Assembly: GCA_029976025.1 (NCBI GenBank) | Contig: JARKNX010000133.1 | Location: 85,683-149,682, forward strand | DNA from: Aggregatilineales bacterium | GTDB lineage: Bacteria > Chloroflexota > Anaerolineae > Aggregatilineales > Ch27 | DNA length: 64,000 bases | Direction: 5' to 3' | Shown: one piece after another, positions 3 through 41,102 of the stretch | Layout of the letters: each line of letters opens with the position of its first letter | How positions within the stretch are numbered: position 1 is the first letter of the stretch | Made by a program: the position numbers and the translations under genes | Notes under the pieces: model-generated | What the model was told of the DNA's origin: nothing | What the model saw: only the letters and a program-made list of their open reading frames with translations | The model's database searches: none

Positions 3-2762
3 GCCATCAAGGCACAGCTTTCCGGCGAGGCGCTGGAGGCTACTCCTGGCGTATTCCATGCCATTTATCGGCTGGGGCCGATCGGGCTGTTTGTAATTGC
101 TCTGGGGCTGTTCACGGTGATCCGCCAGCCCCGGATATCGGCGTCCCTGTTCATCCTCTTTCAGGCTATCCTGTTCAGCAGCTACCTGGCCACGCCCGAA
201 GCGACGCTCGGCGGTTACATTCTGGCGGTGATGTTTTCTCTGCTGGGCTATTTTGTCGGCAAATCGCGCCTGGTCCTCTGGCCCTGGGTATCCTACCGGC
301 TCTGGCGGCAATACAGCCGGTTGAAGCGCGATCTGGCCGCCGACGCGCCAGTTGATGAGGCGGCTGCCGGCGTCCTGACCGAGCTGGATAAAGAGATTGC
401 CGCGCCGCTCTATGGTTACGAAGCGGTCTTGCACACCCTGGCTGAAGCTGGCCTCAGCCTGCACAGCTTCAACGCCCGGACAGCCAGCGCTGCCCACCAG
501 ATGGACTACCGGATAATCGTTCAGTCGATAGGGATACGGCGGCTGGAAACGGCGGCTGATCTGCAGGATGTGTACGACATTGTGGAGCGTTATGACCTGG
601 TTTCATATGAGAACCGGGCTTCGCTCCGCATCTTCATCCAGAAGCTGGCGCACAGCGCCACCGCGATTGAACGCCTGCGCACCCGCGCCCAGTTCCTCTG
701 GCAGCTTGGCGAGATCATCCAGCCCGATTGGGAGGAGCAGCAATCCCGCTGGCCCCGCCAGCATATCGCCATTCAGGTGATGATTCAGCAAATCTACGCG
801 TCGGTGAATTTGAATTACTCCGATGTGGCTCAGTACTGGCTGGCCTACCGCAACCTGGAAGCCACAGTCGAGCAGATTAACGCCATCGCCGAACGGCACG
901 TAGAAACCGGGGAATGCGCGCGCCAGGGGGTCCACCTGACCCTGCAGCAGCTTTCTCAGACACAGCAGCGGATACGGGAGATCGAGACGGAATTTTCGCA
1001 CCTTCCGGAGTATGAGAAGGGGTGGCATCACGCGCTTCTGGATACCGATTTCGATGCGACGCAGTTGTTGACGGTGGACTACCGCGTGCGTGAGGAGATG
1101 GTCCGGGCTGAGATCGAGCGCCTGCAACTGCTGGGCCGAAGCCAGCCGGCGAGCTGGCTGGCGATCAGCAATACCGGCGAAGAGGTCGTCGATCAGATGA
1201 ATCCCTGGTGCGTCATGACCCACCAGTTAATGCAGCGGCTGGAGATGGTGCGACAGATGGACGATCGTTACGTCGCCTGGGCCGAGACAGAACTGAGCAG
1301 CATCCTGGCCGGGCTGCGGACGGTCAAAGATATTGCCGATCTGGATCAGCGCCTGTCGGTGCTGACCATGTCCGATGACAGCTTCGGCCCGATGGTGGAC
1401 GGCACGATTGAGGCGCTGCAGGAGATCGGCCAGCAGACCCGCGCCGCGCTGGCATCGATGGAGGGCACCCATCACCGCCGCCAGCTTTTGATCGAGGCGG
1501 AAGATCGCAGCAATGCGCTCCGCAACTGGCTGCGCACCCGTTATGGCCGGGCGCGGACGCGCCAGTGGGCCGATTATGTGCAAAAGTCAATCAGCGAGGT
1601 GCTGGACGATCACCTCAACCACCAGCGCGAGCAGGAACAGGCGACTTACCGCAACCCCTATATTGTCGGCAACCCGATCACGCCCAAGAGCGCCACGTTA
1701 TTCAAAGGGCGCACCGACCTCGCCCGGCAGCTTGCCGACTTCCTCAACCGTGACAACCAGCCCACCATCGTCCTGTATGGCCCGCGCCGAATGGGCAAAA
1801 CCAGCTTTCTGCTCCAGCTTCAGAATCTGCTGCGCGGCCTGAATGACGACTATATCCCGGTTTTCCTGAATGGGCAGGATGTCGGCGTTTGCCAGAATGA
1901 CGCCAGCTTCTTTTACTTCCTGGCGCGGGCCATCCATACCCAGCTCACCCAGCGCACCGGCCAGCAGATCGAGCGGCCAACCCGCGAAGACCTCGAATCC
2001 GAGCCGTACAGCATCATTCGTGAGTGGATTGATGATAAGGTTGCGCCGCTCCTCAACGAGCGTCAGATGCTTCTGATCACGATTGATGAGTTCGAGAAAA
2101 TCGGGGAGGCCATCCATAAGGGCGAGCTTTCGGAGAAAATTCTGGATTTCCTGCGACATACCATGCAGCATGGTGAGCACATGGTCTTCCTGTTCTGCGG
2201 GGTCGAGACGCTGGACGCGCTGGGGCCGAACGCGGCTTCTTACTTCATCAGCGTGCAGACGTTCGAGATCAGCTATCTCAGCCAGGATGCCGCGGAAGAG
2301 CTGATCCGCTCCCCGAATCCCGCCGCCGGACAGATGCCGGACTACGACGATGACGTGGTGGCGGAGATCATCCGGCTGACACACTGCCAGCCGTACCTCG
2401 TCCAGGCCATCTGCTCGCGCATTGTGGATATCGCCAATGAGGAGCACCTGAGGTGTGTCCAGATGGACACGCTGGAGAAAGGGCTGTCCAGCCTCTTCGA
2501 CACCAACCGGCTGTATTTTCAATATCTGTGGAACGATGCCGGGGAGTACGGGCGGACTATCCTCACAACCCTGGCCGGCGGGCCGGCCTCGCTGGAGCCG
2601 GGACAGCTCGCCCACCCGGAAGGGAAAGGGCTGCTGCTGCGCCGGGTGATCTGCCGCCGTCCGGACGGTATGCACGAGATTGAGATTCCGCTCATGCAGC
2701 ACTGGGTGGCCCTGCAAACGGAAGAGGGGGAAGACACGCTTCCTGTTCTGGTCCACCCCTGA
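3..2762 (+). CDS. Membrane-anchored coiled-coil STAND-like P-loop ATPase (5' end probably left of the window)
   Basis: The ORF-track call 117..2762 starts at a GTG with no SD. The same frame is stop-free back to nt 3 and encodes a further hydrophobic helix (GPIGLFVIALGLFTV), so the true start is probably upstream of the window. TM helices: SLFILFQAILFSSYL and GGYILAVMFSLLGYFV. About 450 aa of helical, coiled-coil-like sequence follows. Then NPYIVGNPI...FKGR, Walker A GPRRMGKTS (nt 1779-1805) and Walker B LLITIDEFE (D-E codons 2085-2090). The HCQPYLVQ helix plus winged-helix-like tail matches the layout of ORC/Cdc6-like (ATPase_2/AAA_16 type) STAND NTPases. Confidence 0.75.
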   Translation, partial: AIKAQLSGEALEATPGVFHAIYRLGPIGLFVIALGLFTVIRQPRISASLFILFQAILFSSYLATPEATLGGYILAVMFSLLGYFVGKSRLVLWPWVSYRLWRQYSRLKRDLAADAPVDEAAAGVLTELDKEIAAPLYGYEAVLHTLAEAGLSLHSFNARTASAAHQMDYRIIVQSIGIRRLETAADLQDVYDIVERYDLVSYENRASLRIFIQKLAHSATAIERLRTRAQFLWQLGEIIQPDWEEQQSRWPRQHIAIQVMIQQIYASVNLNYSDVAQYWLAYRNLEATVEQINAIAERHVETGECARQGVHLTLQQLSQTQQRIREIETEFSHLPEYEKGWHHALLDTDFDATQLLTVDYRVREEMVRAEIERLQLLGRSQPASWLAISNTGEEVVDQMNPWCVMTHQLMQRLEMVRQMDDRYVAWAETELSSILAGLRTVKDIADLDQRLSVLTMSDDSFGPMVDGTIEALQEIGQQTRAALASMEGTHHRRQLLIEAEDRSNALRNWLRTRYGRARTRQWADYVQKSISEVLDDHLNHQREQEQATYRNPYIVGNPITPKSATLFKGRTDLARQLADFLNRDNQPTIVLYGPRRMGKTSFLLQLQNLLRGLNDDYIPVFLNGQDVGVCQNDASFFYFLARAIHTQLTQRTGQQIERPTREDLESEPYSIIREWIDDKVAPLLNERQMLLITIDEFEKIGEAIHKGELSEKILDFLRHTMQHGEHMVFLFCGVETLDALGPNAASYFISVQTFEISYLSQDAAEELIRSPNPAAGQMPDYDDDVVAEIIRLTHCQPYLVQAICSRIVDIANEEHLRCVQMDTLEKGLSSLFDTNRLYFQYLWNDAGEYGRTILTTLAGGPASLEPGQLAHPEGKGLLLRRVICRRPDGMHEIEIPLMQHWVALQTEEGEDTLPVLVHP

Positions 2763-2910: not shown

Positions 2911-5900
2911 GTGAGCCAGGATCGAAAGAGTTTCGTCAGCTATAGCGATAGAGATGCCGCCTTTGCCCTGCGACTGGCCGTCGATCTGGCCCAACGGGGC
3001 GTCCCTCTGTGGATGGACCGGCTGAATCTGCTCCCCGGTGAGGATTTCCGGGCCGCCGCCGCGGCCGCTCTGGATGCCCCTCTGGCCTTCCTGGCGGTTA
3101 TATCGCCGGCTTATCTGGAATCTGGCTATTGCCGGGCGGAGCTGGACCGGGCGCTGTCGCTCGGGGTGCCGATCTGCGTTGCTTTGCTCCAGCCCGTGCC
3201 TGAGGCGGACCTGCCTGTGCCGCTCGCTGAGGGGGCTTACGGGGACTTCCGGGCCTGGCCCGATGATGGCGAGGGCTACTGGCAGGGTGTCAACACGCTC
3301 GTCGATCTGTTCTATCGGGAGGCCGGCGTCCCGGTCGCTCCGGAGGCCGGGTCAGAAGCGCGCTACCTGCTGGGGGTAATCCGCGATCTGGGGGCGCGCC
3401 TTGCGATACCTCAGATAGAGGATGCCGGCGATCAGCGCCCTGATCCAGATGGCGCTTTCAACTGGCTGGCGCAGGGGTGCTTCGGGGTTTTTGACCCCCG
3501 GGATATGTCCCCGGCGCTCCCGCAGTTCCGCCCGCACATCGCCCGCTACGAGGGCCTTCAGTCTGTCGCTGAACAATATCCCCGCTTTGTCCTGATCGGC
3601 GATGGCGGCTCCGGCAAGACCACGCTGTTGAGCGGGCTGGCTCTGCAAGCTGCGCGCGCGCGGCTGGCCTGGCCCGCGTCCGCGCCGCTGCCCCTCATTC
3701 TGCCGCTGGCCGCCTGGAGCGGAGATGTTGCGCTGCCTTCTTTCATTCGCCAGGCTGCCGAAGCGGCGGGGTGGCCGTCCGACAGCGATCCGCTGGCGGC
3801 GCTGAGCCAGGGTGAGGCTGCCCTGTATCTGGATGGCCTGAGCGAGACTGAGGATGCTGTCGAGAAGGCCGAGCGGCTGCGCGAATGGCTCCAGTCGGAT
3901 GCCGCGCCGCAGCGGCTGATCGTGACTTGCGACCGGGAGGCGTACCTGCGCGGCCTGGTTCTGGGCCTGCCGGCGGTGCAGATTATCCCCTGGGACGCCG
4001 CCCGCGCTGAGGCGTATCTGGCGGCAGCGGTGAACGCGGATTTCGCACCGGAGCCGGGAGACGCCCTGCCCGCCGGGCGCGCGCCGATCCACCCGTCCGC
4101 CGGCCTGCGCGATCTGCTGCGCCACCCGCTCCTGCTGAATGTGCTGGCCCGCGCCGGGCAGCCCGCTGGCGGCCCCGAGGGCAGCGCAGGAATGCTCCTG
4201 CGGCGGCTGACGGAGCATCGATGGGCGGAAGCGGAAGGCCGGGCGACGGTCTCCTGGACGACGCTGGAAGCCGGACTGGCTGAGCTGGCTTTTCAGGCCA
4301 CGCTGGACGCCATGCCGGTATATCTGCCGGAGGATTACGCCGTCCGTTATCTGGGCGACGCCGCTTTGCTTGACCCGGCCAACAGCGGCGCCTTTCTGGA
4401 GATGGCCGGGGGAGCGGTGCGGTTTGTGCATCAGGCGGTGCGCGACTATTTCGCCGCCCGTTATATTGTGCAGGCCGGGGCGCTGTGCGACTACCTCGCC
4501 CTGCCGCAGTTCGACCCCGGCGAACAGCGCATCCCGGGCCAGTGGGATGCCGCCGTGATCCTCCTCAGCGGCCTGGCCCCCGACCCGGAGGCCATTGTCT
4601 ACGAAGTGGCCCGTGTAGACCCGTTCCTGGCCTTTGAGTGCGCGTACAGCGGCCTGGACCTGTCCCGCGATAGTCTGGACCGGCTGGCCCACCATCTGCT
4701 CAGCTCCTCGTTTGTCCACCGCCAGATCGGGCGCGTGGCAGCCGTCCGCCTGATCCCGGCTGATCTGGCCGAATCGGCCATGCCTACCCTGCTGGAAACT
4801 ATGCGAAACGGCGCGTGGGATGCCCGCTGGGCCGCCGCCGACACGCTGTTCGAGATGAACCCGCCGCTGCTGCCGGGCGTCCTGGAGGCGCTGGCGGACC
4901 TTGATTCTCCGCTCAACACGGCTGCCGGGGCGGCGCTGCGCAAGATCGGCCAGGCGGCCCTGCCGACCCTGCTCATGCTGATGTACGCGGATGATGCTGC
5001 GATCCGGCGGGGGGCGGCCCGCGCCCTCGGTCAATTTGGCGATCCGGCGGCCGTCCCGGTCCTGGTGGAGGCGCTCCAGGACGCCGACCCGGCGGTGGTG
5101 ATAGAGGCCGCCGGCGCGCTGGGCTGGATACGCGATTCTGCCGCCACGCTGTGGCTGCCCCGCCTGCTGCACCATGACCACCCGGATATCCGGCAGGCCG
5201 CCATCCGGGCGCTGGGCTGGATGCGCGCCGCCGCCGTGGATAGTATGCTGGATGCCGCTGTTAATGCCCCCGATCTGGAGACGCGCACCCAGGTAATTGA
5301 AGCGCTCAAAGATACCTCTGATCGGGCGGTACAGGATCGGCTGTTGCACGCCACGACCAGCGACGACGGCGAGATTCGCGCCGCCGCCCTGGAAGCCTTG
5401 GAGAACGCGGAGGGCCCTGTGTTTGTGAAACGTCTCATTGATGCCCTGGAAGATACAGCCTATTCCCGCTGGCGTGGCAAAAGCATCGGCAGCATTGCCG
5501 CTGAAGTCCTTAAAGCGCGGGGGTACGATGCTGCCGCGCTGGCCGCCGAGGGTGAGGAGGACGCCCCGACTGCCCCGGCCGCTGAAGAGGCTGAGCATAT
5601 CCCCCCCCGATTCGAGACAGAAGCGCCCGCTGGCCGGAATTCCGCCTCCACAGCCCGGAGCCGCCTGAAGCGGATCACGGCTCAGGACGCGGCGCTGGCC
5701 GCCGCCCCTGCGGCATCGCTGGAGGAAGTTCAGGAGGGGACGCCCGCTCCGCTGCCGACTGAAGTTGCTCCGCTTGACACCCCGCCCCGGCCAGCTTCCC
5801 GCCAGTTCGAGCTGGCGGACGATCTGACCAGCCTGGACTGGAGCCGCCGGAGCGATGCCGTGCTGGCGCTGCAGGGTCAGGAGCCTGAGATAGCCATCCC

Positions 5901-7260
5901 GCGCCTGATACAGGCGCTTAAGGATGAGGATAGCCAGGTCCGGCTGGCTGCGGTGGATGTGCTGCAAACCTTCAACACCGAGGACGCGCTCAGGGGCCTG
6001 TTCATGGCGCTCGGCAACGATGAATATCTGGTGTGCGACGCGGCGTCGGACGCTTTCGCCCGGATTGGCCGGCGGACCGTCCCTTATCTGATCAGGGCGT
6101 TGTCCAGCCCGCAGGTCAACATGCGGGCGGGGGCTGTGGAAGCGCTGGGCAAGATTGCCGATCCGGCGGCTATGGCGGACCTGACCCGGCTCCTTTCCGA
6201 TACAGAGCGGCCCTGGCTGTTTGATCTGTGCGTGGGCGATCTGGCGGCTAAAGCTCTGGAATCGATCGGCACGCGCGAGGCGCTCCAGATCGTGCTGCAA
6301 TGGCGGGCGGAAAACGCCCCCGACCCCCGGACGCAGGCTCTCAGTCAGGCGCCGGTCCTGTCCGAAGATTTGGCCGCCCCGGCGGAGAGCGCCGCCGAAG
6401 ATGATGCGCCATCTGCGCCGGAAGCCGGGGCGTCAGCCCCCGCAACGGCGACCGTGCTCCCCGGCGAGCTGACCCCGCCGCGCGGCATGCCGGAAGACCC
6501 GGGCAACCGGCAGATTGTCCTCGAAGTGCTGGATAACCTGCGCCACCCGGAATGGGAGGTCCGGCAGGCGGCGGCCAGGACGCTGCGCGAATATGCCAAG
6601 GCCCTCAAGGGGGCGGATGACCCGACTATTCTGGGGCGCTTGCAGGACGCTCTGGAAGACCCCTCCTGGGAAGTGCGCTGGGCCGTGGTGGAGGCGCTGG
6701 CCTGGATCGCCAACCCGGTCACCGTCCCGGCTATCGCCAGACGTCTGGAGGATAAGAACTGGATTGTGCGCGTCGCCGCGATCCGGGCGCTGACGGAGAT
6801 CCGGGATATCAGCGCCGCCCCGGCGGTGATCGGGGCGCTGAAAGATCGCAAGGGGCTGGTGCGGGAGGCCGCTGCTGAAGCTCTGGGCGAGCTGGGTGTT
6901 CCGGCGGCGGTGAATCCGCTGATCGAGCTGCTGCAAGATTCTGAGACGCTGGTCCGCCTGGCGGCCATTTACGCCCTGGGCAGGCTGCGGGCGCGGGCGG
7001 CGGTGCGGCAGGTGATGACCGCCCTGCGCGATGAGGACGCCAACATCCGGCTGGCGGCGGCGGTCGCGCTCGGCAAGATCGGGGATCCTCTGGCGATCAG
7101 CCGGCTGATTGAAGCCCTGGAGGATACGGGCAGCCCGTCGTGGGAGGAACAGCGGGTGTGTGACGCCGCCGCCGGGGCGCTGGAAGATATTGGCACACCA
7201 GAGGCGCTGGACGCCGCAACGCAGTGGAGGTCCGCGCAGGCGCCAGGGGTAGCAAACTGA
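2911..7260 (+). CDS. TIR-NACHT-HEAT repeat protein (NLR-like STAND NTPase, 1449 aa)
   Basis: GTG start with a GGAG SD. N-terminal TIR: SFVSYSDRDAAFALRLAVDL...FLAVISPAYLESGYCRAELDRAL, with the conserved Glu codon at 3139-3141. NACHT-type P-loop: Walker A GDGGSGKTT (3598-3624) and Walker B AALYLDGLSE (3820-3846). The C-terminal ~800 aa hold three arrays of PBS-lyase/EZ-type HEAT repeats, for example IRRGAARALGQFGDPAAVPVLVEALQDADPAVVIEAAGALGWIRD. Acidic Ala/Pro/Glu-rich linkers separate the arrays. Confidence 0.9.
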   Translation: MSQDRKSFVSYSDRDAAFALRLAVDLAQRGVPLWMDRLNLLPGEDFRAAAAAALDAPLAFLAVISPAYLESGYCRAELDRALSLGVPICVALLQPVPEADLPVPLAEGAYGDFRAWPDDGEGYWQGVNTLVDLFYREAGVPVAPEAGSEARYLLGVIRDLGARLAIPQIEDAGDQRPDPDGAFNWLAQGCFGVFDPRDMSPALPQFRPHIARYEGLQSVAEQYPRFVLIGDGGSGKTTLLSGLALQAARARLAWPASAPLPLILPLAAWSGDVALPSFIRQAAEAAGWPSDSDPLAALSQGEAALYLDGLSETEDAVEKAERLREWLQSDAAPQRLIVTCDREAYLRGLVLGLPAVQIIPWDAARAEAYLAAAVNADFAPEPGDALPAGRAPIHPSAGLRDLLRHPLLLNVLARAGQPAGGPEGSAGMLLRRLTEHRWAEAEGRATVSWTTLEAGLAELAFQATLDAMPVYLPEDYAVRYLGDAALLDPANSGAFLEMAGGAVRFVHQAVRDYFAARYIVQAGALCDYLALPQFDPGEQRIPGQWDAAVILLSGLAPDPEAIVYEVARVDPFLAFECAYSGLDLSRDSLDRLAHHLLSSSFVHRQIGRVAAVRLIPADLAESAMPTLLETMRNGAWDARWAAADTLFEMNPPLLPGVLEALADLDSPLNTAAGAALRKIGQAALPTLLMLMYADDAAIRRGAARALGQFGDPAAVPVLVEALQDADPAVVIEAAGALGWIRDSAATLWLPRLLHHDHPDIRQAAIRALGWMRAAAVDSMLDAAVNAPDLETRTQVIEALKDTSDRAVQDRLLHATTSDDGEIRAAALEALENAEGPVFVKRLIDALEDTAYSRWRGKSIGSIAAEVLKARGYDAAALAAEGEEDAPTAPAAEEAEHIPPRFETEAPAGRNSASTARSRLKRITAQDAALAAAPAASLEEVQEGTPAPLPTEVAPLDTPPRPASRQFELADDLTSLDWSRRSDAVLALQGQEPEIAIPRLIQALKDEDSQVRLAAVDVLQTFNTEDALRGLFMALGNDEYLVCDAASDAFARIGRRTVPYLIRALSSPQVNMRAGAVEALGKIADPAAMADLTRLLSDTERPWLFDLCVGDLAAKALESIGTREALQIVLQWRAENAPDPRTQALSQAPVLSEDLAAPAESAAEDDAPSAPEAGASAPATATVLPGELTPPRGMPEDPGNRQIVLEVLDNLRHPEWEVRQAAARTLREYAKALKGADDPTILGRLQDALEDPSWEVRWAVVEALAWIANPVTVPAIARRLEDKNWIVRVAAIRALTEIRDISAAPAVIGALKDRKGLVREAAAEALGELGVPAAVNPLIELLQDSETLVRLAAIYALGRLRARAAVRQVMTALRDEDANIRLAAAVALGKIGDPLAISRLIEALEDTGSPSWEEQRVCDAAAGALEDIGTPEALDAATQWRSAQAPGVAN

Positions 7261-7652
7261 TGCGGGTGTTTTCCTGAGGGTGAAGCAGGCGCGCCGGGAA
7301 GCTGCCGCCCGCCGGTGAAAAACAAATTAATACCTTTTTAACACCGGCAGGTGGCGGGGTATGTTATTTTAAAAGCGGAGCACTTCAACAAAGGCTGACT
7401 GCTACGGGCCATCCGTTTTCCTCTCACCTATTCCAGAGGGGGCTGTGAGTAAGGTGAAGGTGCTTCGCTATTATCTCCGAAGCGGAAAGTAGATCGGCAG
7501 GACTCCGCGCCGGGGATACCGCCTCAAGCGGGTATAGACGCTTCATTTCTTTTCATGATCTCAATTGGGGGGGTTACCCGCACAGTCGGTTCCGCGAGGC
7601 AGGGTGACGCCTAAAATCCTTTGCGCGGATAGTGCACCTTCAGGAATATGCC

Positions 7653-9209
7653 ATGCGACTATTTGTCAGCTATGCCCGTGTAGACAAACCCTACTGTATT
7701 CAGATTGTGGATACGCTGGAAGCGCACGATTCGTGGTTCGATCAGCGTCTGTATGCCGGCCAGAACTGGTGGCAGGAAATCCTCCGCCGGCTGGACTGGT
7801 GCGAGGGATTCATCTATCTGCTGTCGCCTGACTCCGTAGCCTCAGAATACTGCCGCAAGGAGTTCGAGCTGGCGCAAAGCCTGGGGCGCCCTATCTTCCC
7901 CATCCTGATCCATAAGGACCTTAATCTGCCGCCGTCGCTTGCCGAAGTCCACTATGTGGATTTCAGCGAAGGCATCACGGTCGAAGCCGTCACCGGGCTG
8001 CTGAATGCGATCACGATCGCCGAGCGGCGACGCGGCGCCGGCAGCCCGCTGCCGGTCTCGGCCATCGATGCCGAGGATGTCAAGCCTCCGACGCCCGATT
8101 CCGGTCTGGTGATCAGCGCGGCGGCTGAGGCGATGGAGAAGGGCCAGTTCGACAAGGCGGTTTTCCTGCTCAAGCAAGCCAAGGCCAACAATTTTGTCTC
8201 CCAGTTCATCAGCATTGACGCCCTGCTGCAGGAGGCACTGGCCGGTCTGGAGCGGCAGTCGTACCTGCGCGAGGCGGAGCGCGAGTACCGGCAGATTGCT
8301 GATCTGGTCAAGTTCACCCGCACGCGCCGGCTGGGTTGCGAGGCCTTCAAAGCCTTTCGGCAGGCTTTCCCCGATTACGATCCGGACAACCTGTCGGTCT
8401 ACTGCAGCGAGACGACAAATTTTTCCATATCCGCCCCGCTTGAGCGGTTTGCCCCTAAAGAGCCGCCGGCCCCCCCCGTGCCTGCGTTCCGGCTCCCCCT
8501 GCTGGAGTGGTGTCCGGTGCCGGAAGGGAATGTCCTGATCGAGGGCAACGGCAAGACCTACCCGGAGCCTAAGCTGTTTCAGGTGCCGGCTTTTGAGATC
8601 AGCAAATATCCGATCACCAACGCCCAGTATCAGGCATTTCTGGATGATCCGGAGGGGTACGCCAACCCGGCGTGGTGGGAATTTTCGCCGCTGGCGATGG
8701 AAGTGCGGGCGGAAAACGGCGAGCCGAAAGCCCCCCATTTCACGGGGGACGAGCGTCCGCGCGAGATGATCAACTGGTTCGACAGCATGGCGTTTTGTGC
8801 CTGGCTGAGCGACAAACTGGGGGCCAGGGTGACCCTGCCGCTGGTCAACCAGTGGGTGCGGGCCGCCCGCGGCGATTCTAGCTGGGACTTTCCCTGGGGG
8901 GAGCGCTTCATCCGCGAACGGTGCAATACCAGCGAGAGCAAGCTCAAGATGACTTCGCTGGTCAATCGCTACCCCGATGGCGCCAGTCCCTTCGGGGTGG
9001 TGGACATGGCCGGCAATATCTGGGAGTGGTGCCTGAACCCCAAGAATGATCTCGAAGATCAGCCGGAGATCACCAGCAGTCAGGAGCGCGCGGTGCACGG
9101 CGGGTCGTTCATCGGCCCCTCTACCCGGGCCAAGATTTCCTTCCGCTATTATCTGAATCCCAGGCTGTATTACTCCTCTATCGGCTTCCGCGTTGTCAAA
9201 CTGCCATAG
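7653..9209 (+). CDS. TIR domain / helical linker / FGE-sulfatase-fold (SUMF1-like, FGS) domain protein
   Basis: ATG at 7653 (MRLFVSYARVD...). The ORF track offers an alternative in-frame start at 7632. TIR: FVSYARVDKPYCIQIVDTLE...FIYLLSPDSVASEYCRKEFELAQSLGRPIFPILI, with the Glu codon at 7860-7862. Middle region: TPR-like helices (AMEKGQFDKAVFLLKQAKANN). From about nt 8493 the protein has FGE-sulfatase motifs: FEISKYPITNAQYQAFLDD, INWFDSMAFCAWLS, FGVVDMAGNIWEWC, RAVHGGSF...SIGFRVVK. Confidence 0.85.
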   Translation: MRLFVSYARVDKPYCIQIVDTLEAHDSWFDQRLYAGQNWWQEILRRLDWCEGFIYLLSPDSVASEYCRKEFELAQSLGRPIFPILIHKDLNLPPSLAEVHYVDFSEGITVEAVTGLLNAITIAERRRGAGSPLPVSAIDAEDVKPPTPDSGLVISAAAEAMEKGQFDKAVFLLKQAKANNFVSQFISIDALLQEALAGLERQSYLREAEREYRQIADLVKFTRTRRLGCEAFKAFRQAFPDYDPDNLSVYCSETTNFSISAPLERFAPKEPPAPPVPAFRLPLLEWCPVPEGNVLIEGNGKTYPEPKLFQVPAFEISKYPITNAQYQAFLDDPEGYANPAWWEFSPLAMEVRAENGEPKAPHFTGDERPREMINWFDSMAFCAWLSDKLGARVTLPLVNQWVRAARGDSSWDFPWGERFIRERCNTSESKLKMTSLVNRYPDGASPFGVVDMAGNIWEWCLNPKNDLEDQPEITSSQERAVHGGSFIGPSTRAKISFRYYLNPRLYYSSIGFRVVKLP

Positions 9210-9231
9210 AGCGCGCAGCCTCACGCGGCAT

Positions 9232-9278
9232 AAAACAGACAGCGGCCAGATTGTGCCATCTGACCGCTGTTTTGTTTT
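9232..9278. terminator. Bidirectional intrinsic terminator between convergent genes
   Basis: The stem at 9236-9251 pairs with 9258-9273 (ACAGCGGCCAGAT / ATCTGACCGCTGT, one mismatch) around a 6-nt loop. AAAA lies on the left and TTTTGTTTT on the right. It sits between the stop at 9209 (+) and the stop at 9295 (-). Confidence 0.75.
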
Positions 9279-9294
9279 ACCCGGGGCGGGGGCC

Positions 9295-11139
9295 TCAATG
9301 GTGATCGAAGGTCAGCATCGCCACGTTCATCTCGCACCCGTCAGCGAAGCGAATCGACTGATCGGGTGAGAGCGGATTGCCGAAGCCATCCTCAATGCGG
9401 GCGGTCCATGTGTTGAGCTGTGCCGCGTCCGCGCGGACGGCGACTTCAAAGCCGGCGGGGCCATAACGCGGATCGCTGCCGCTCAGGATGTAGCGATCCA
9501 GCCCGGGGCCGAACACATGCACCAGGGTGGCCGGGCGCGGGCTGCCGTCCCCGTTGCGCACCTGCCCGGCGATGCCGAACCACTGGCAGGCCGGGTGCAG
9601 CTCGCTGCGAATCACCATGCCACTGACGGAGTACTGGAAGCCGGGGGTTGGCGTGGCGGTGAAGGTCGGCGTGTAGGGCGCGTGCAGGATGGCCTGAATG
9701 GTCGGGTCGGGCGTGCTCGTCATCGCCGGGACCAGATAGCCGGGATCGCCGTAGGCCGGGACCAGATAGTTGCTGCGCACATCGTTGAATATCTCCCGCG
9801 CCTGCAGCATCAGGTTATAGCCGTTGGTGCCTGCTTCGACCGGCATCACATAGCCGGGCGTCCTGGTGAACCCGTTGCACTGGGTCTGCCACACGGCGAT
9901 GCTCTGACGCAGCACAGCCAGCCCCTCGTTCATGCGATTCACCAGCGGGATGAGCTGCGGGTAATGCTGCTGCTCCCAGGCGGTCAGGGCGTAGTCCGGC
10001 GGCTGCTGCGGCAGGTTGACACACGGCGGCTCGCCGGTCACACCCAGCCGGACATCCAGCCAGATCGCCTCGATCCGCTCAAATTGATCCTGCGCGAAGT
10101 TGAGATGGGCGTGGATTCCCTGTAACTGCACCGTGTAGCTGCCTGTGATGCGGAATAACACCTCATCGAAGGCGGCGCGGGCGCTCTGTATCGCCGGCGG
10201 TCCGCCAGCGATGGCCTGCCCGGTGGCGTTATTCGGCCCGGCCAGACAGGCATCCAGATACCACTGGACGGCATTGTTAAGGTCGTTCAGGCCCTGGTTC
10301 AGCCGGAGCACTGCCTCGATCAGATCGGGGAAGGCATTCCGGTCGGTCGAATTGAGGAAGAAGCGCTCCATCAGCGGAGGGGCGGAGCAGACCTGCGGCC
10401 AGATGCCAGCGCGGAGGCTTTGCCAGGCCGGCTCGATCACGTCCAACGTCGCCCGGGCCTGGTCCAGCGTGCGCCGGATCTGGTCCACCACCAGGAACTT
10501 ATCGCGCGCGTTGGCATCGGTCAGGCGCGCCCCGGTATCTGACGCCGGCGGGACCACTGGCACGTCGTTGATGGTAGCGCCGCTGTCGCTGAACAGGGTG
10601 ATATTGTCCAGGAACAGCCAGCCGACCAGCCCCTCCCACGTGACCTGTATCCAGTCGTTGCTGGCCACGCGCCCGGTCACCGGAAACTCGGCATAGCGGG
10701 GCAGGTTCTGCAGGATGGGGTAGGCCGTGCTCGGCCCGGCGCGCAAGGCCGCGCCGCTGTACTCCAGCCGGCCCTTGAGCGCCCCGGCGGGGCTGCCCCC
10801 GCCCGCGCTCGGCGCGGCGTTGCTGTTGTAGGGGATAGTGCGCGGGTCAGCCAGGGGGAGGGTGTTCACGTCGCCGCTGACGTTGACCACCAGCCGCCCC
10901 ACCCAGCCTTCGCGACCGAGGTAATCAATCCGCACCCATTCCCCATCGACCGAGCGCCCTGTCGCCGTCGCCGTATCAGCGGGGCCCATGCTGCCGATCA
11001 CGGTGGCGCCAATGGCCGGCCACAGCCGCACATTGATGTAATCCCGGTTGGGCGTTACAGTGATAGTCCCCTGCGCCTGGATGAGCGCGGGGAAGATAAT
11101 GCCGATGAGCAGGACGGCAATCAGCGCTCGTTTGAACAT
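9295..11139 (-). CDS. Secreted protein with two SH3b-like domains, otherwise uncharacterised
   Basis: Signal peptide MFKRALIAVLLIGIIFPALIQAQG. SH3b-like segments: YINVRLWPAIGATVIGSM...GEWVRIDYLGREGWV and ALRAGPSTAYPILQNLPRYAEFPVTGRVASNDWIQVTWEGLVGWL. The remaining ~400 aa have no motif I recognise. Confidence 0.7.
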   Translation of the reverse strand: MFKRALIAVLLIGIIFPALIQAQGTITVTPNRDYINVRLWPAIGATVIGSMGPADTATATGRSVDGEWVRIDYLGREGWVGRLVVNVSGDVNTLPLADPRTIPYNSNAAPSAGGGSPAGALKGRLEYSGAALRAGPSTAYPILQNLPRYAEFPVTGRVASNDWIQVTWEGLVGWLFLDNITLFSDSGATINDVPVVPPASDTGARLTDANARDKFLVVDQIRRTLDQARATLDVIEPAWQSLRAGIWPQVCSAPPLMERFFLNSTDRNAFPDLIEAVLRLNQGLNDLNNAVQWYLDACLAGPNNATGQAIAGGPPAIQSARAAFDEVLFRITGSYTVQLQGIHAHLNFAQDQFERIEAIWLDVRLGVTGEPPCVNLPQQPPDYALTAWEQQHYPQLIPLVNRMNEGLAVLRQSIAVWQTQCNGFTRTPGYVMPVEAGTNGYNLMLQAREIFNDVRSNYLVPAYGDPGYLVPAMTSTPDPTIQAILHAPYTPTFTATPTPGFQYSVSGMVIRSELHPACQWFGIAGQVRNGDGSPRPATLVHVFGPGLDRYILSGSDPRYGPAGFEVAVRADAAQLNTWTARIEDGFGNPLSPDQSIRFADGCEMNVAMLTFDHH

Positions 11140-11308
11140 GAGCCTGTTCCCTCACCTGATAGGTCACCCGGTTACTGCCACCAGTGTAGCACAGCCCGCC
11201 GCTGCCGGCATACTCCCAAAGGTCCGGGTCACGCACTGAATGGAGAAGCGGCCCCACGCCCGGTGACCTGCTCCCTGGTCAGAGGCGCGCCCCAATTATG
11301 AAAGACTG

Positions 11309-11337
11309 TTGACAGCCTTTTCAAATTGGTATACGCT
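11309..11337 (+). promoter_or_regulatory. Candidate sigma70-type promoter
   Basis: TTGACA (11309-11314), 17 nt, TACGCT (11332-11337). Confidence 0.4.
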
Positions 11338-11670
11338 GCATGAGAGCGCTCCCCAATACAGATATAAGTTCGAGTCTGAACCAGAATGAGATCGCCAAAC
11401 TGGCCGGGGCATCTCGCACCATTGTGTCGCGTATCCGCACGATTGTCCTGATCTTCTCCGGTGTCGCTCTGCCCCTTTCATCGACTCTTGCTTTTCACTT
11501 AGCTCGCTCATCCCGCTACAAGCATGTCATGGCTCGCTGCCGGGAGAAGATGCCGCCCGTGACGCACCTGGACGATACGCGCTGGCTGCGATGCTACCTG
11601 TTCGAGAAATGAATGGCGCTGGCGGCCCGGAAGCCGGGACGCCGCCGGCATTGGAATATGGCGCAGAGGA

Positions 11671-17421: not shown

Positions 17422-21840
<4,419 letters not shown>

Positions 21841-26298: not shown

Positions 26299-26748
26299 AT
26301 GGCCGGACGTTTTGCTCACCTGCGCGTGATTCTGGCGATCGCTATCCTGACCCTGTTCACGATCATCTGGATGGGGATGCTGCTGATCTTCGCCGTGGGC
26401 GGCATCCAGCAGGCCGTGGCCGACCGGGGGCAGATCGCTGGCGGGGGGCAGGCGGCCCTGTTCGCCGCCGCCGGACGCCGCTACCTGCCGCTGCGGCCCT
26501 ACCTGCCGATCGGCGAGCCAGTCGGCTACATCGCCGACCAGCCCGCGGAAGATAGCGGGTACGTGCGGGCGCTGTACACCCTGCCGCCGGCGGTGATCGT
26601 GGAGGGCGCCGCCTGCTGCGATCTGGCTATCGGCGATTTCTCCAGCAGCGCCGCCGCCGCTGATTTTGTGGCCCGGGATGTATGGCGGCTCTCCGCTGAC
26701 CTGGGCGACGGCCTGGTCCTGCTGGAGAGGGCCGGGAGGACGCCATGA
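26299..26748 (+). CDS. Small membrane-anchored hypothetical protein
   Basis: ATG at 26299 (MAGRFAHLRVILAIAILTLFTIIWMGMLLIFAV, a TM helix). Its stop overlaps the next gene's start (ATGA at 26745-26748). Confidence 0.55.
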   Translation: MAGRFAHLRVILAIAILTLFTIIWMGMLLIFAVGGIQQAVADRGQIAGGGQAALFAAAGRRYLPLRPYLPIGEPVGYIADQPAEDSGYVRALYTLPPAVIVEGAACCDLAIGDFSSSAAAADFVARDVWRLSADLGDGLVLLERAGRTP

Positions 26749-28184
26749 GCGCGCCCCTGCCCGGAATTTTAGCCGGGCTGATCCTGCCGGAGATCGTCGG
26801 CCTGCTGCTGGCTTACGCGATCTACCCCTCCTGGCGGCGGCTTCCCGACGGGCGGGCGCTGTGGGTCCTCGTGGCGGCGGGGGGCGGCGTCGGCCTGACC
26901 GCCTGCCTGTTCTTCTGGGGGTTGGTCGCATTAGGGCCGGCGCTCCCGGCCACGCTGGCGCTGGAGCTGGGGCTGCTGGCGCTGGCCGCCGGAGCGGCTT
27001 TCTGGCGGGCGCGCCGCCGGGGGACGCCCGCCGACATTCCGCCTGACCCGCGCCCGGCGCCGCCGCACGGGCTTTACGGCCGCCTGCTGACCGGAACGTT
27101 CGCGCTGGCGCTGGCTCTGTCCGGCCTGTTCAGCATCGCCGCTTTCACCTACGAGCCGCACGGCCGCTGGGACGCCTATGCGATCTGGAACTTGCGGGCG
27201 CGCTACCTGTTCGGCGGGGGCGATCAGTGGCGGGCCGGGTTCGATCCGGCCCTGGCCTGGACACACCCCGATTATCCCCTGCTGCTGCCCGGCTCGGTCG
27301 CCCGTCTGTGGCTCTACAGCGGAGAAGCGACGACGCTGGCTCCGATTCTGGTCGGCGGGCTGTTCACAGTCCTCACGGTGGGGCTGCTGGTCGCCGGCGT
27401 GAATGCCCTGCGGGGCCGGGAAGCGGCGCTGTGGGCCGGGTTGATGCTGGTTGGCACAATTACGTTCGTCCAGCATGGCGTCTACCAGTATGCCGACGTA
27501 CCCCTGAGCAGCCTGATTCTGGCGGCGGTGGTCCTGCTGACGGCTTACCTGCGCCGGGGGGAGGCCGGGCTGCTGGTGCTGGCGGGCGGCATGGCCGGCT
27601 TCGCCGCCTGGACCAAGAACGAGGGCCTGCTGTTCCTGCTGAGCAGCGCCGCCGTGCTCGGTGTATGGAGTCTGCGGCGCGGCGGGCTGGGACAGGCGGG
27701 CCGGGAGCTGGGCGGCTTCCTGCTCGGCGCGCTGCCCGCCCTCCTGACTGTCCTGCTGTTCAAGCTCACGCTCGCCCCTCCCAACGATCTGGTCAGCGGG
27801 CAGGGCGCGGAGACGGCGGCCCTCCTGACCGATCCTGCGCGCCTCTTGAGCATCATCACGGCATTCATTGACGGTATATTGGGGCTAGGAGTTGGTACGC
27901 CGCTGGTTCTGGCGATCTACAGCGCTCTGGTCGGAGGCCGGCACTTCCGGGCCGAATACCGGGTTCCGATCGCCATACTGGGGGGCGTCCTGGCCGGTTA
28001 TGTGCTGGTCTACCTGACCACGCCCCACGACCTGGCCTGGCACCTGGAAACATCCCTGGAGCGCCTGCTCGTGCATCTGTGGCCGGCGGCGCTGTTCCTG
28101 TTCTTCCTGATCGTGCCGCCGCCGGCCGAAGCCTGGCGGGCGCGCCGCGGAGCTGCCTCCAGAGCGGCGGCGCGATTCTCTTGA
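26745..28184 (+). CDS. Polytopic membrane protein, possible GT-C (family 39/ArnT-like) glycosyltransferase
   Basis: More than 10 predicted TM helices. An EPHGRWDAYAIWNLRARYLF-type loop follows the early helices, as in GT-C-like enzymes. The function assignment is weak. Confidence 0.5.
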   Translation: MSAPLPGILAGLILPEIVGLLLAYAIYPSWRRLPDGRALWVLVAAGGGVGLTACLFFWGLVALGPALPATLALELGLLALAAGAAFWRARRRGTPADIPPDPRPAPPHGLYGRLLTGTFALALALSGLFSIAAFTYEPHGRWDAYAIWNLRARYLFGGGDQWRAGFDPALAWTHPDYPLLLPGSVARLWLYSGEATTLAPILVGGLFTVLTVGLLVAGVNALRGREAALWAGLMLVGTITFVQHGVYQYADVPLSSLILAAVVLLTAYLRRGEAGLLVLAGGMAGFAAWTKNEGLLFLLSSAAVLGVWSLRRGGLGQAGRELGGFLLGALPALLTVLLFKLTLAPPNDLVSGQGAETAALLTDPARLLSIITAFIDGILGLGVGTPLVLAIYSALVGGRHFRAEYRVPIAILGGVLAGYVLVYLTTPHDLAWHLETSLERLLVHLWPAALFLFFLIVPPPAEAWRARRGAASRAAARFS

Positions 28185-33749: not shown

Positions 33750-34063
33750 GGTTGAGAAGTAGCGGAGAACAGCCGAAAAGCAGGATCAGACAGGGACGGC
33801 AGCGAAGGCGGCATGGCGCGGGGCTGGCGATAAATCGATATTTTCTCCTCCGGCCGCCGGGAAGAGGGGGCAAGATTTATATGAATCCTGCGGGACAGCG
33901 CGATAAGTGCACCAGACCATGTTACCGGCAGGATAGCGCCCTCGTCCACGCTATCTCGGCTCCGCCCGATTTAAGTAGTTCGCCATCCTCGGGTATTTTT
34001 TACCGTCTACCCGATTGAATGAGGCCAGTTTCCGCTGAATGCCAGCTAAAAACACGATAGTAG

Positions 34064-34092
34064 TTGACATGGATAAAAAGTGGGAGTATTTT
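34064..34092 (+). promoter_or_regulatory. Candidate promoter upstream of the ArsR-like regulator
   Basis: TTGACA (34064-34069), 17 nt, TATTTT (34087-34092), in a strongly AT-rich gap. Confidence 0.45.
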
Positions 34093-34094
34093 AT

Positions 34095-34122
34095 ATATGA
34101 CACATATTATTCTGTGTCATAT
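34095..34122. promoter_or_regulatory. Perfect 10-bp inverted repeat (candidate operator)
   Basis: ATATGACACA (34095-34104), 8 nt, TGTGTCATAT (34113-34122). It starts 3 nt after the candidate -10 box. Confidence 0.5.
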
Positions 34123-34244
34123 GCCGGAGAAAAGTGAATTTCCAAGTATATTTGTCTGGATTTTGATATTCACGAAACCTTATGCAATATAAGAATATGT
34201 TTTTTTCTATTTTATTGTGATCGATTGTCAAGGCGGCAATCCTC

Positions 34245-35201
34245 ATGACAAAAGCCGGGCGAAACCTCGTAATTAATATCGACGACACTTCCCTGAATGT
34301 CGAGCCGATCCTCAAGGCTCTGGCATCAGATCGGCGCATTGCCATGCTCCGTTTCCTGGGCGGCAATAGCTGCAGCATCAATGAGATCGCGGATGCGCTT
34401 GAAATACCCCCTTCAACTGCGACCATGCACATCAATGTCCTCGAAGAAGCCGGGCTGATTAGGACGGAGCTGAAGCCTGCCAGCCGCGGTTTACAGAAAA
34501 TCTGCGCCCGGGTCTACGACCAGGTTTCTATTCTTTTGCCCAGCGGTGAGCTTCCGAAGGAAAACTTCATCGACATCAGCATGCCGATCGGCGCCTACGT
34601 TGACTGCAACATAACCCCGACATGCGGTATTCTCAGCGAGGAAGGCATCATCGGGCAGCTCGATGATCCGGACACATTCTATGATCCGGAACGTGTCAAC
34701 GCGCAATTGCTGTGGTTTAAGCAGGGCTATGTCGAATACCGGTTCCCCAACCGCCTTCCCCCCAAAGCAGAATTGAAAAGTCTCCAGCTCAGCCTGGAAT
34801 TATGCTCAGAAGCGCCGTTGCACGATGACAACTGGCCCTCAGATATCACCCTGTGGATCAACGATATAGAAGTTGGAACCTGGACCAGTCCGGGTGATCT
34901 GGGGGGGACACGCGGGGTGTTGACCCCTGGCTGGTGGGAAGAATGGAATTCCCAATACGGCCTGTTGAAGATCTGGAAAATCAATGAACAGGGTACGTTC
35001 GTTGATGGCCTGCAAATCTCCGGGGTTACGATTGATAATCTCAAATTGAGATCGAGGGGGTTTATCCCGCTGCGACTCGGCGTCAAGGATGACGCGGCGA
35101 ATATCGGCGGGCTGAACATATTTGGCCGAGCTTTCGGAAACTATCCGCAGGATATTGTCATGCGGATAGTTTTTGAAGTCACGACTCCACAGCCAGACTG
35201 A
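34245..35201 (+). CDS. ArsR/SmtB-type winged-helix regulator with ~220-aa C-terminal extension
   Basis: ILKALASDRRIAMLRFLGGNSCSINEIADALEIPPSTATMHINVLEEAGLIRTEL is a classic ArsR wHTH. The C-terminal beta-rich domain is of unknown function. Confidence 0.8.
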   Translation: MTKAGRNLVINIDDTSLNVEPILKALASDRRIAMLRFLGGNSCSINEIADALEIPPSTATMHINVLEEAGLIRTELKPASRGLQKICARVYDQVSILLPSGELPKENFIDISMPIGAYVDCNITPTCGILSEEGIIGQLDDPDTFYDPERVNAQLLWFKQGYVEYRFPNRLPPKAELKSLQLSLELCSEAPLHDDNWPSDITLWINDIEVGTWTSPGDLGGTRGVLTPGWWEEWNSQYGLLKIWKINEQGTFVDGLQISGVTIDNLKLRSRGFIPLRLGVKDDAANIGGLNIFGRAFGNYPQDIVMRIVFEVTTPQPD

Positions 35202-35285
35202 ATATCAAAGGAGAAGCGCTATAGATCGAAACCAGGAAATGCCATCACGCTACGTATACGCCTGAAGAATCAAGGAGAAAGTAAG

Positions 35286-36539: not shown

Positions 36540-36561
36540 CGCGTTTTCCTACACTCCTATT

Positions 36562-36590
36562 GCTACGGGGGGTTACCAGCCCCCCGTAGC
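36562..36590 (+). promoter_or_regulatory. Intercistronic perfect stem-loop (no U-tract)
   Basis: GCTACGGGGGG (36562-36572) pairs perfectly with CCCCCCGTAGC (36580-36590) around loop TTACCAG. It lies between the binding-protein and permease genes, the position typical of mRNA-stabilising or attenuating hairpins in ABC operons. Confidence 0.55.
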
Positions 36591-36624
36591 TCAAAACGAA
36601 AATTAGCTACCCAGGGGCATACAC

Positions 36625-37575: not shown

Positions 37576-37591
37576 AAAGGATGATATCAGC

Positions 37592-38440: not shown

Positions 38441-38458
38441 AACTGGAGGCGTTGGCCC

Positions 38459-39412: not shown

Positions 39413-39474
39413 TTCGGAGCGGCAGGCGCCGCTCCAATTTTTATGAGCCTGTTTTTCTCTCAAGGGACAGCACT

Positions 39475-40935: not shown

Positions 40936-41102
40936 CTCGCACCCTTACACATGGCAATCGCCGCTTTGCAGATGATGGTGTCAATGGCCGTGTAGGCGTA
41001 CGCCTCTCCCTGGCGCTTGAGAACGCGAGGGCCAGGGGGAGGCCGGGATGAAGGTCTTTCCAGGTCAGACGGAGTCGCATTCCTCTTGAGAGTACCGCAA
41101 TT

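Follow-up and report, generated by a model that had tools for sequence, protein, structure and literature searches.

A TIR protein with a cysteine-less FGE-fold domain is probably the conserved half of a two-gene immune or cell-death module in filamentous Chloroflexota

A 64,000-nucleotide stretch from an Aggregatilineales bacterium (GenBank assembly GCA_029976025.1, contig JARKNX010000133.1, positions 85,683 to 149,682), referred to here as the window, carries at 7653-9209 on the plus strand an open reading frame (ORF), ORF3, for a protein of 518 amino acids in which a TIR domain is fused, by way of a helical middle domain, to a C-terminal domain with the fold of the formylglycine-generating enzyme (FGE), the FGE-sulfatase or FGS domain. 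ORF3 is probably the conserved half of a predicted two-gene immune or cell-death module, the other half being the STAND NTPase encoded upstream by ORF2. The reading that we favour, with a probability of about one half, is that ORF3 would serve as the constant subunit, bearing the catalytic TIR, in a two-gene module (ORF2 plus ORF3) resembling the nucleotide-binding leucine-rich repeat receptors (NLRs), present in filamentous Chloroflexota (Anaerolineae, Aggregatilineales, Phototrophicaceae). The elements of the pair are as follows.

2911..7260, plus strand: ORF2, a TIR-NACHT-HEAT STAND NTPase of 1449 amino acids (Pfam TIR_2, NACHT and HEAT_2)
7653..8027, plus strand: TIR domain of ORF3, amino acids 1-125, or about 1-126 in the structural model (Pfam, AlphaFold2)
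8097..8420, plus strand: all-helical middle domain of ORF3, amino acids 149-256, five helices (AlphaFold2), no Pfam match
8421..8507, plus strand: variable linker of ORF3, amino acids 257-285, mean identity 27%
8508..9206, plus strand: FGS domain of ORF3 (FGE-sulfatase or C-type-lectin fold), amino acids 286-518 (Pfam, hhalign, Foldseek)

Translation of ORF3 gives a frame without internal stops up to the stop codon at 9207-9209 and recovers the motifs YPITNAQY, WFDSMAFCAWLS, DMAGNIWEWC, HGGSF, IGFRVV and GGSFIGPSTRAKISFRYY. The N-terminus MRLF(V/I)SYAR, including Met1, is invariant among homologues, and the start is therefore placed at ATG 7653 rather than at GTG 7632. Pfam assigns amino acids 4-107 to TIR_2 (E 1.3e-20, 74.6 bits, cutoff 28) and amino acids 309-516 to FGE-sulfatase (E 3.2e-33, 115.9 bits, cutoff 23.3), both far beyond the range of chance, which bears out the motifs and the TIR-FGS fusion described in the initial annotation, a reading made from the sequence alone. 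The same TIR-helical-FGS order emerges when Pfam is combined with an AlphaFold2 model built from a 40-sequence alignment (mean predicted local distance difference test score, pLDDT, 85). In this model the middle domain consists of helices at 150-162, 166-178, 188-220, 225-238 and 247-256 (pLDDT about 88-95), and amino acids 257-271 of the linker are predicted to be disordered (pLDDT <50).

TIR-FGS is a large, established architecture. A protein search with ORF3 returned 833 matches at E <= 1e-5 among 8,000 candidates scored, and the best 120 all combine TIR_2 with FGE-sulfatase, most of them being 500-530 amino acids long and 50-66% identical to ORF3; where the records name an organism, it belongs to the Chloroflexota. 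When the FGS domain alone was searched against 1.84 billion representatives, 1,255 matches were found at E <= 1e-30. The survey of architectures that the initial annotation had called for showed TIR_2 in 74 of the 103 nearest FGS-domain relatives, many of these fusions measuring just 350-430 amino acids, with a kinase, a CHAT, a caspase and a receiver domain each found in a single case. Additionally, among GTDB species, each represented by a single genome, 167 stretches encoding ORF3-like proteins were located and 80 loci were kept; together with the window locus they make up the 81 to which the counts below refer. All but one of the 80 are titled as Anaerolineae, Aggregatilineales, Phototrophicaceae or Chloroflexota metagenome-assembled genomes, the remaining locus (L045) being labelled 'uncultured Pleurocapsa sp.'. 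A filamentous habit of Anaerolineae is described in literature cited in PMC10907252.

The pairing of ORF3 with ORF2 is a property of the family. ORFs were called and clustered in the 81 loci, and the ORF2 family was the only neighbour family found in most of them (71/81). An ORF2-like gene, identified by Pfam as TIR-NACHT-HEAT, lies immediately upstream on the same strand in 66/81 ORF3-family members, at a median distance of 30 bp; the two genes are mostly separated by 0-50 bp or overlap, and at least 12 pairs show a 4-bp stop/start overlap. In the window, ORF2 carries the Walker A motif GDGGSGKT at amino acids 230-237 and the TIR glutamate Glu77. The initial annotation had described ORF3 as a TIR plus sensor devoid of an NTPase switch of its own; this holds for the polypeptide but not for the gene, which is paired with a TIR-NACHT-HEAT STAND gene in those 66 loci.

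The TIR domain of ORF3 shows alternating beta and alpha elements across amino acids 1-126 of the AlphaFold2 model, as in the TIR fold. Within its S-E-Y-C-R-K-E motif lies a catalytic-type glutamate, Glu70 (codon 7860-7862), which is invariant in 81/81 members and aligns with the WC..E glutamate of the TIRs of Cat1 (SDWCWDE), RPV1 (SRWCLDE) and TLR6, although matches of the domain to the PDB are weak (best E 0.02, Cat1). The catalytic role of this glutamate in TIR NADases is well established. The ORF3 TIR is predicted to be of the NAD-cleaving type and catalytically competent.

The two partners evolve unequally. Mean pairwise identities, computed over 57 shared paired loci, reach 66% for the TIR, the most conserved part of ORF3, 52% for the conserved helical domain and 53% for the FGS domain, as opposed to 31% for the TIR, 25% for the NACHT and 32% for the HEAT region of ORF2; ORF3 evolves about half as fast as its partner. 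The glutamate equivalent to Glu77 is kept in 45/58 members of the ORF2 family, the other 13/58 having Leu, Gln, Asp, Ile or an alignment gap, whereas the adjacent ORF3-type glutamate is always kept. These glutamate-less partners come mainly from one Aggregatilineales group. In L005, L007, L009, L011, L012, L013 and L016 (gene at about 6500-9960) the partner TIR, degenerate but still recognisable, was missed by Pfam and found by hhalign (94.8%), in a test that also included L020, which retains the glutamate; the other glutamate-less partners are those of L010, L014, L015, L017, L024 and L060. Loss of the glutamate in the partner and never in ORF3 would fit an adaptor TIR that recruits a catalytic TIR. 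Likewise, the combined pattern of rates and glutamates would fit a variable receptor or switch (ORF2) acting with a constant catalytic TIR subunit (ORF3), the TIR of the receptor being free to act as nothing more than a homotypic adaptor. The much higher conservation of ORF3 relative to ORF2 fits an effector or adaptor that stays constant and has a conserved ligand better than a fast-evolving pathogen sensor. The proposal that the FGS domain is a non-catalytic binding or sensor module is supported, as detailed below.

A mechanism compatible with this pattern can be proposed. The rapidly diverging ORF2 would act as variable sensor and ATP-driven switch, with its HEAT array in charge of sensing; once activated, it would oligomerise through its NACHT domain, and its N-terminal TIR, whether active or degenerate, would seed a mixed assembly that takes in the ORF3 TIR. 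In this assembly the TIR active sites would cleave nicotinamide adenine dinucleotide (NAD+), and the infected filament cell would be arrested or killed by the resulting depletion or signal. Together, the FGS and helical domains would bind a conserved ligand (the partner, a molecule of the invader or a host molecule under guard), thereby gating or localising the ORF3 TIR. In the lineage of the window, a third TIR protein with transmembrane helices and an ATPase domain (ORF1, see below) may have joined the cluster. A bolder and rather doubtful extension is that the pair could correspond, in bacteria, to the sensor/helper TIR-NLR pairs of plants: a fast-evolving receptor whose TIR can decay to an adaptor would hand activation to a slow, always-catalytic helper. 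Instead of sensing pathogens, the Cys-less FGE fold would then work inside the cell as a regulatory receptor, its conserved self ligand being the partner, an NAD-derived messenger or a guarded factor of the host.

That the C-terminal domain adopts the FGE fold, as stated in the initial annotation, is seen in the AlphaFold2 model. Foldseek searches of this model against the PDB matched only FGE-fold proteins (E 4e-15 to 1e-11), namely OvsA, human FGE, EgtB, pFGE, PvdO, ToxD, CalU17, OvoA, bacterial FGEs and TvpA; the FGE structures 1y1e, 2aii, 2q17 and 6muj were matched at E of about 1e-12 to 1e-13, with a TM-score normalised to the target of about 0.64. In sequence comparisons, ToxD (5.7e-18), EgtB (6e-12) and OvoA (2e-10) came out as the nearest relatives of solved structure, with true FGEs far behind (about 1e-4). 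Human FGE was aligned by hhalign with a profile built from 114 full-length ORF3-family sequences (probability 99.4%, E 5e-22). The SUMF1 91-374 sequence is 100% identical to PDB 1y1e, and the human motif quoted in the initial annotation is right.

In this alignment, GGSFIG---PSTRAK of ORF3 pairs with GGSYMCHRSYCYRYR of human FGE. Cys336 is replaced by Gly488 and Cys341 by Ser490, His337-Arg338-Ser339 corresponds to a three-residue deletion in the ORF3 loop, and Tyr340 is replaced by Pro489; of Ser333, His337 and Tyr340 only Ser333 is retained, as Ser485. The position of the FGE active-site loop is thus occupied by GGSFIGPS, with Gly488-Pro489-Ser490 encoded at 9114-9122, and another human loop of 13 residues, around 250-262, is also absent from ORF3. 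Past the GGS motif, Cys does not exceed 20% in any column of the alignment of 114 homologues, and ORF3 has none beyond residue 460. Mutation of Cys336, Cys341, Ser333, His337 or Tyr340 was shown to alter the activity of FGE (PMC4505483), and Cys336 and Cys341 are its Cu(I) ligands (PMC5324649, PMC6676471). ORF3 lacks four of these five activity-affecting residues (Cys336, Cys341, His337 and Tyr340), and its FGS domain therefore cannot be an FGE. In line with this result, no sulfatase was detected by Pfam among the scanned ORFs of the window, nor any sulfatase family among the 25 commonest Pfam families (each in at least two proteins) of 123 genes flanking the family's loci, and the claim that ORF3 is not a sulfatase maturase is upheld on both counts. 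The expectation that the loss of the Cys pair would be an oddity does not survive: it is the usual state in PF03781 and not the exception, being shared by EgtB, OvoA, PvdO, ToxD, TvpA, PorK and pFGE.

It is barely credible that the domain is nevertheless a working oxidative enzyme of the FGE, EgtB/OvoA or PvdO/ToxD kind that relies on other residues, as public annotation implies. Its D-x-x-G-N-x-W-E-W core is invariant in the family, ToxD and PvdO belong to biosynthetic pathways despite lacking the Cys pair, and four cysteines elsewhere in the domain are fairly conserved: C287 (82%; codon at 8511-8513), C382 (89%; 8796-8798), C424 (77%; 8922-8924) and C460 (98%; 9030-9032). These are, however, the only cysteines of the domain and none occupies an FGE catalytic position, which disposes of the possibility, raised in the initial annotation, that the catalytic pair had merely shifted. 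They are swapped independently of each other for Ala, Ser, Thr or Val, with no co-variation, and C382 aligns with the structural Cys218 of human FGE, whose disulfide partner Cys365 corresponds to Val514. Furthermore, the Cu-ligand pair, His337 and Tyr340 are missing, no DinB match was found in ORF3 by Pfam, and the NCBIfam cutoffs are far from reached (43.5 vs 360 bits for EgtB, 53 vs 400 for OvoA, 49 vs 420 for SenA, 35 vs 500 for PvdO). An EgtB-like reading of the helical domain was also considered and rejected: the Foldseek alignments with EgtB and OvsA cover 350-440 columns, but at a root-mean-square deviation of about 20 Å, and the helical domain has no conserved His and therefore no DinB-type iron site or His triad. 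The consistent fusion to TIR and the lack of sulfatase or biosynthetic genes among the neighbours found point in the same direction. Collectively, the alignments indicate that the ORF3 C-terminal domain is a Cys-less FGS (C-type-lectin-fold) module that corresponds to no known enzyme of the superfamily, and they support its reading as a non-catalytic binding module.

In public records, the homologues P0004, P0019, P0040 and others are named 'formylglycine-generating enzyme required for sulfatase activity' or 'SUMF1/EgtB/PvdO family nonheme iron enzyme'. Both names are contradicted, because the Cys pair and the iron domain are missing, and TIR-FGS proteins are thus systematically mis-annotated.

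The surroundings of the pair in the window add three further features.

3..2762, plus strand: ORF1, cut at the left window end; C-terminal part with transmembrane helices and an AAA/STAND-like ATPase that has the Walker A motif GPRRMGKT (Pfam ATPase_2, AAA_22)
7261..7652, plus strand: ORF2-ORF3 spacer of 392 nt, 55% G+C as against about 64% around it
9239..9270, no strand assigned: G+C-rich, terminator-like hairpin with a 13-bp stem, between ORF3 and a convergent SH3-domain gene

The frame of ORF1 (frame 3) is open from nucleotide 3, with a start at 117 in the ORF list. Its homologues in the two closest loci (L002:2122-5358 and L003:1784-5026) are 1078 and 1080 amino acids long, lie directly 5' of the ORF2-ORF3 pair and combine an N-terminal TIR_2 (E 4e-27) with transmembrane helices and an AAA/STAND-like ATPase; ORF1 is missing from the remaining 78 loci. 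The lineage of the window therefore probably has three tandem TIR genes, the TIRs of ORF1, ORF2 and ORF3 all showing S-x-[YW]-C-x-x-E. A different extension is seen in Phototrophicaceae-type loci (L057:11647-14657, L062, L072 and L038), where the pair is followed by two extra genes on the same strand, an ORF of roughly 170 amino acids with no Pfam match and an 800-amino-acid NACHT protein in which no effector or repeat domain was detected; these loci may hold a four-gene module.

The ORF2-ORF3 spacer is unusually long; it contains neither an ORF nor an Rfam match and is not conserved across the other loci. A single sigma-70-like site lies in it, at 7338-7365, and may give ORF3 its own promoter. 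For the window as a whole, Rfam and tRNA scans gave no matches. Diversification of ORF3 by a diversity-generating retroelement (DGR) was considered and rejected, as no template repeat of its 3' end occurs anywhere in the window, and reverse transcriptases are absent from the Pfam families listed for the 123 flanking genes. PADLOC-DB 2.0 gave no full-length model match, ORF3 being hit in the TIR region only (best E 1.2e-5) and ORF2 in HEAT and TIR fragments.

The rest of the window is ordinary chromosome, with genes for GH3, GNAT, RmuC, a class-A penicillin-binding protein, a Ser/Thr kinase, seryl-tRNA synthetase, GH31, CheA, SulP and an arabinan-type sugar operon. The region 34001-41000 has a G+C content of 52-59%, compared with about 65%, and encodes an ArsR/MarR-type regulator, an ABC sugar transporter (binding protein plus two permeases), GH43 and an alpha-L-arabinofuranosidase, a gene set resembling an operon for arabinan utilisation, perhaps of horizontal origin. 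The class-A penicillin-binding protein (17422-21840, minus strand, 1472 amino acids) has a C-terminal PPC domain and an N-terminal extension of roughly 490 amino acids without a Pfam match, and two large ORFs, at 53742-56123 (minus strand, 793 amino acids) and 26745-28184 (plus strand, 479 amino acids), also lack Pfam matches.

Several observations weigh against ORF3 being the constant subunit of a two-gene immune module, and alternatives can be built on them. The most direct is a monophyletic clade of about 13 stand-alone TIR-FGS proteins (486-504 amino acids, about 47% identical to ORF3; loci L051, L053, L054, L066, L068, L069, L073, L075, L076 and L080, at about 10001-11480) that have no adjacent NACHT gene and lie after a conserved, housekeeping-type gene run with, among others, a GH35/42-like gene and one for a solute-binding protein, so that a protein of the ORF3 type may act alone or in trans. 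Tandem duplicates of the stand-alone form occur in L069, L073 and L075, and several genomes hold paired and stand-alone copies together, as JBGAFZ010000002 does with L012 and L076. In the window itself, the 392-nt spacer with its promoter-like site means that co-transcription of ORF2 and ORF3 is not assured. The FGS domain is highly conserved, in contrast to arms-race sensors, the genes flanking the family's loci are those of ordinary metabolism and transport, and PADLOC found scattered matches only among the 123 flanking genes, with no signal of a defence island. Searches of plasmids and phages (tblastn) gave matches at the level of the FGS domain (<36% identity) and no full-length ORF3 homologue. 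Finally, it is from sequence that we infer the NADase activity, the TIR-TIR interaction and the phage link of the pair.

On these grounds ORF3 could be an autonomous sensor-effector, whose FGS domain binds an invader molecule (protein, glycan or nucleic acid) and whose own TIR NADase is activated by oligomerisation, as in SAVED- and STING-TIR proteins, the NACHT neighbour belonging to a different system and merely travelling along. We consider this possible but unlikely. The stand-alone clade with its duplicates, the possible promoter upstream of ORF3 and the prevalence and small size of TIR fusions among the nearest FGS relatives all favour it, and direct contact between FGS and invader molecules was proposed by Kaur et al. 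(PMC8195603). However, the adjacency in 66/81 loci, the short gaps and the stop/start overlaps are hard to explain in the absence of functional coupling, the FGS domain has stayed conserved with no sign of DGR diversification, and a partner TIR that degenerates beside an ORF3 TIR that never does suggests a division of labour. Quite unlikely, in our view, is a non-antiviral, lineage-specific and vertically inherited circuit of NAD+-linked signalling or programmed cell death (e.g., in filament fragmentation, stress or kin control) in which FGS would sense an endogenous metabolite or protein. The strong conservation of ORF3, its ordinary chromosomal setting with no defence enrichment and the lack of full-length copies in the plasmids and phages searched agree with such a circuit, as does the synteny kept within sublineages (L005/L012; L057/L062/L072) and within the stand-alone clade. 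Against this stand the partner's fast divergence (25-32% identity), which is expected under conflict, the lineage-variable make-up of the module (the extra ORF1 here, the extra NACHT gene in Phototrophicaceae) and the finding that the proteins of TIR-NACHT-repeat architecture tested so far are all immune receptors (10.1101/2022.07.19.500537, PMC13581612). Decidedly improbable is a Thoeris-like cascade within a single operon, with the partner TIR making an NAD-derived messenger, the ORF3 FGS acting as its receptor and the ORF3 TIR as amplifier. A fixed small-molecule ligand would explain why the FGS domain is conserved, domains of this fold bind small molecules in EgtB and OvoA, which with ToxD are its nearest solved relatives, and two or three TIR genes lie together in one cluster. 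Nevertheless, since the partner TIR has lost its glutamate in 13/58 pairs that keep ORF3, a partner-made signal cannot be general, and the stand-alone clade has no adjacent TIR to produce one. To our knowledge there is no precedent for nucleotide binding by FGS, which also counts against the cascade.

The constant-subunit reading of ORF3 bears on a wider question, as TIR domains and NLR-type NTPases are common to bacterial, plant and animal immunity, where the recruitment and activation of TIRs is a central issue. The ORF2-ORF3 family offers a natural two-subunit case, a variable NACHT-HEAT receptor with a conserved TIR subunit bearing an FGE/C-type-lectin-fold domain, and counts its members in the hundreds among filamentous Chloroflexota, a phylum whose immunity has hardly been studied by experiment. 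The system bears on the intracellular ligand of a non-catalytic FGE fold, on hetero-TIR assembly in bacteria and on whether a 'sensor/helper' division of labour predates plants; a receptor/helper-like pair with asymmetric conservation is a concrete, testable system for these questions.

Among known systems, the closest in concept are those of Kaur et al. (eLife 2020, PMC7159879; eLife 2021, PMC8195603), who described FGS as a non-catalytic lectin-fold module that multicellular bacteria use in conflict systems. In their account it invariably lies on the C-terminal side of effectors (TIR, caspase and kinases among them) and is coupled to STAND, MoxR-vWA or GTPase regulators, often with DGR diversification. 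ORF3 resembles these systems in its C-terminal non-catalytic FGS, its N-terminal effector, its linkage to a STAND protein and its multicellular or filamentous hosts, the role being predicted in both cases. It departs from the effector-STAND-FGS arrangement in that FGS is carried by a separate TIR protein and the STAND protein (ORF2) has its own HEAT array and TIR. The coupling to an NTPase that these authors describe is found in 66/81 loci as a separate polypeptide rather than a fusion, and one paralogue clade has no NTPase; moreover, the ORF3 module lacks an EAD/Death-like adaptor, MoxR-vWA and DGR, and the bearer of FGS is the slow-evolving partner. The same work describes NPCBM-TIR proteins beside AP-ATPase-TPR genes (PMC7159879, PMC8195603), an arrangement that, by analogy, is the closest published counterpart of ORF2-ORF3.

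FGS/FGE-sulfatase domains have also been counted among STAND sensor types (Kibby et al., 10.1101/2022.07.19.500537; 2026 Avs survey, PMC13581612), and STAND-associated CLec/FGE domains are described as experimentally uncharacterised (PMC10907252). ORF2 follows the effector-NACHT-repeat layout of bNACHT and Avs proteins, but those characterised are single polypeptides, none having a dedicated second subunit of the TIR-FGS type. ORF3 shares its fold and a ligand-binding, non-catalytic role with variable proteins of DGRs such as TvpA of T. denticola (PDB 2y3c), yet, unlike these and the DGR-diversified STAND sensors (PMC10907252), its C-terminal region is not hypervariable, at 53% identity.

With human SUMF1 (1y1e), bacterial FGEs (2q17, 6muj, 6s07) and pFGE/SUMF2 (1y4j), ORF3 has in common the fold (Foldseek E about 1e-13), and it retains the core motifs of FGEs (the RP..V.W helix, LPTE.EW, PWG, the G-N-x-W-E-W strand, GGS and the GFR C-terminus), although it differs in being cytoplasmic and fused to TIR. 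EgtB, OvoA, OvsA and SenA, as well as ToxD and PvdO, likewise lack the FGE Cys pair; enzymes of the EgtB/OvoA type have catalytic iron in an N-terminal DinB domain, or lie in biosynthetic clusters, whereas in ORF3 the FGS domain is preceded by a TIR and by a helical domain that is unrelated.

TIR-SAVED, TIR-STING, Thoeris ThsB and Cat1 resemble ORF3 in linking a TIR that has a catalytic glutamate to a binding domain on its C-terminal side, and in the likely need for oligomerisation. ORF3 differs from them in that its binding domain has the FGE/C-type-lectin fold and in having no cyclase or CRISPR partner. TIR genes lying side by side also recall the paired TIR-NLRs and TIR-only helpers of plants. 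In agreement with the initial annotation, which knew of no functionally characterised TIR-FGS defence protein, a literature search found no experimental paper on a TIR-FGS protein and none describing a pair of the ORF2-ORF3 type. The published idea of FGS as a sensor predates the present reading, and a Cys-less FGS on a TIR protein is unsurprising to a specialist; what differs in ORF2-ORF3 is the placement of FGS on a separate TIR protein, next to a STAND protein with its own HEAT array, free of DGR, and with the FGS-bearing subunit as the conserved one.

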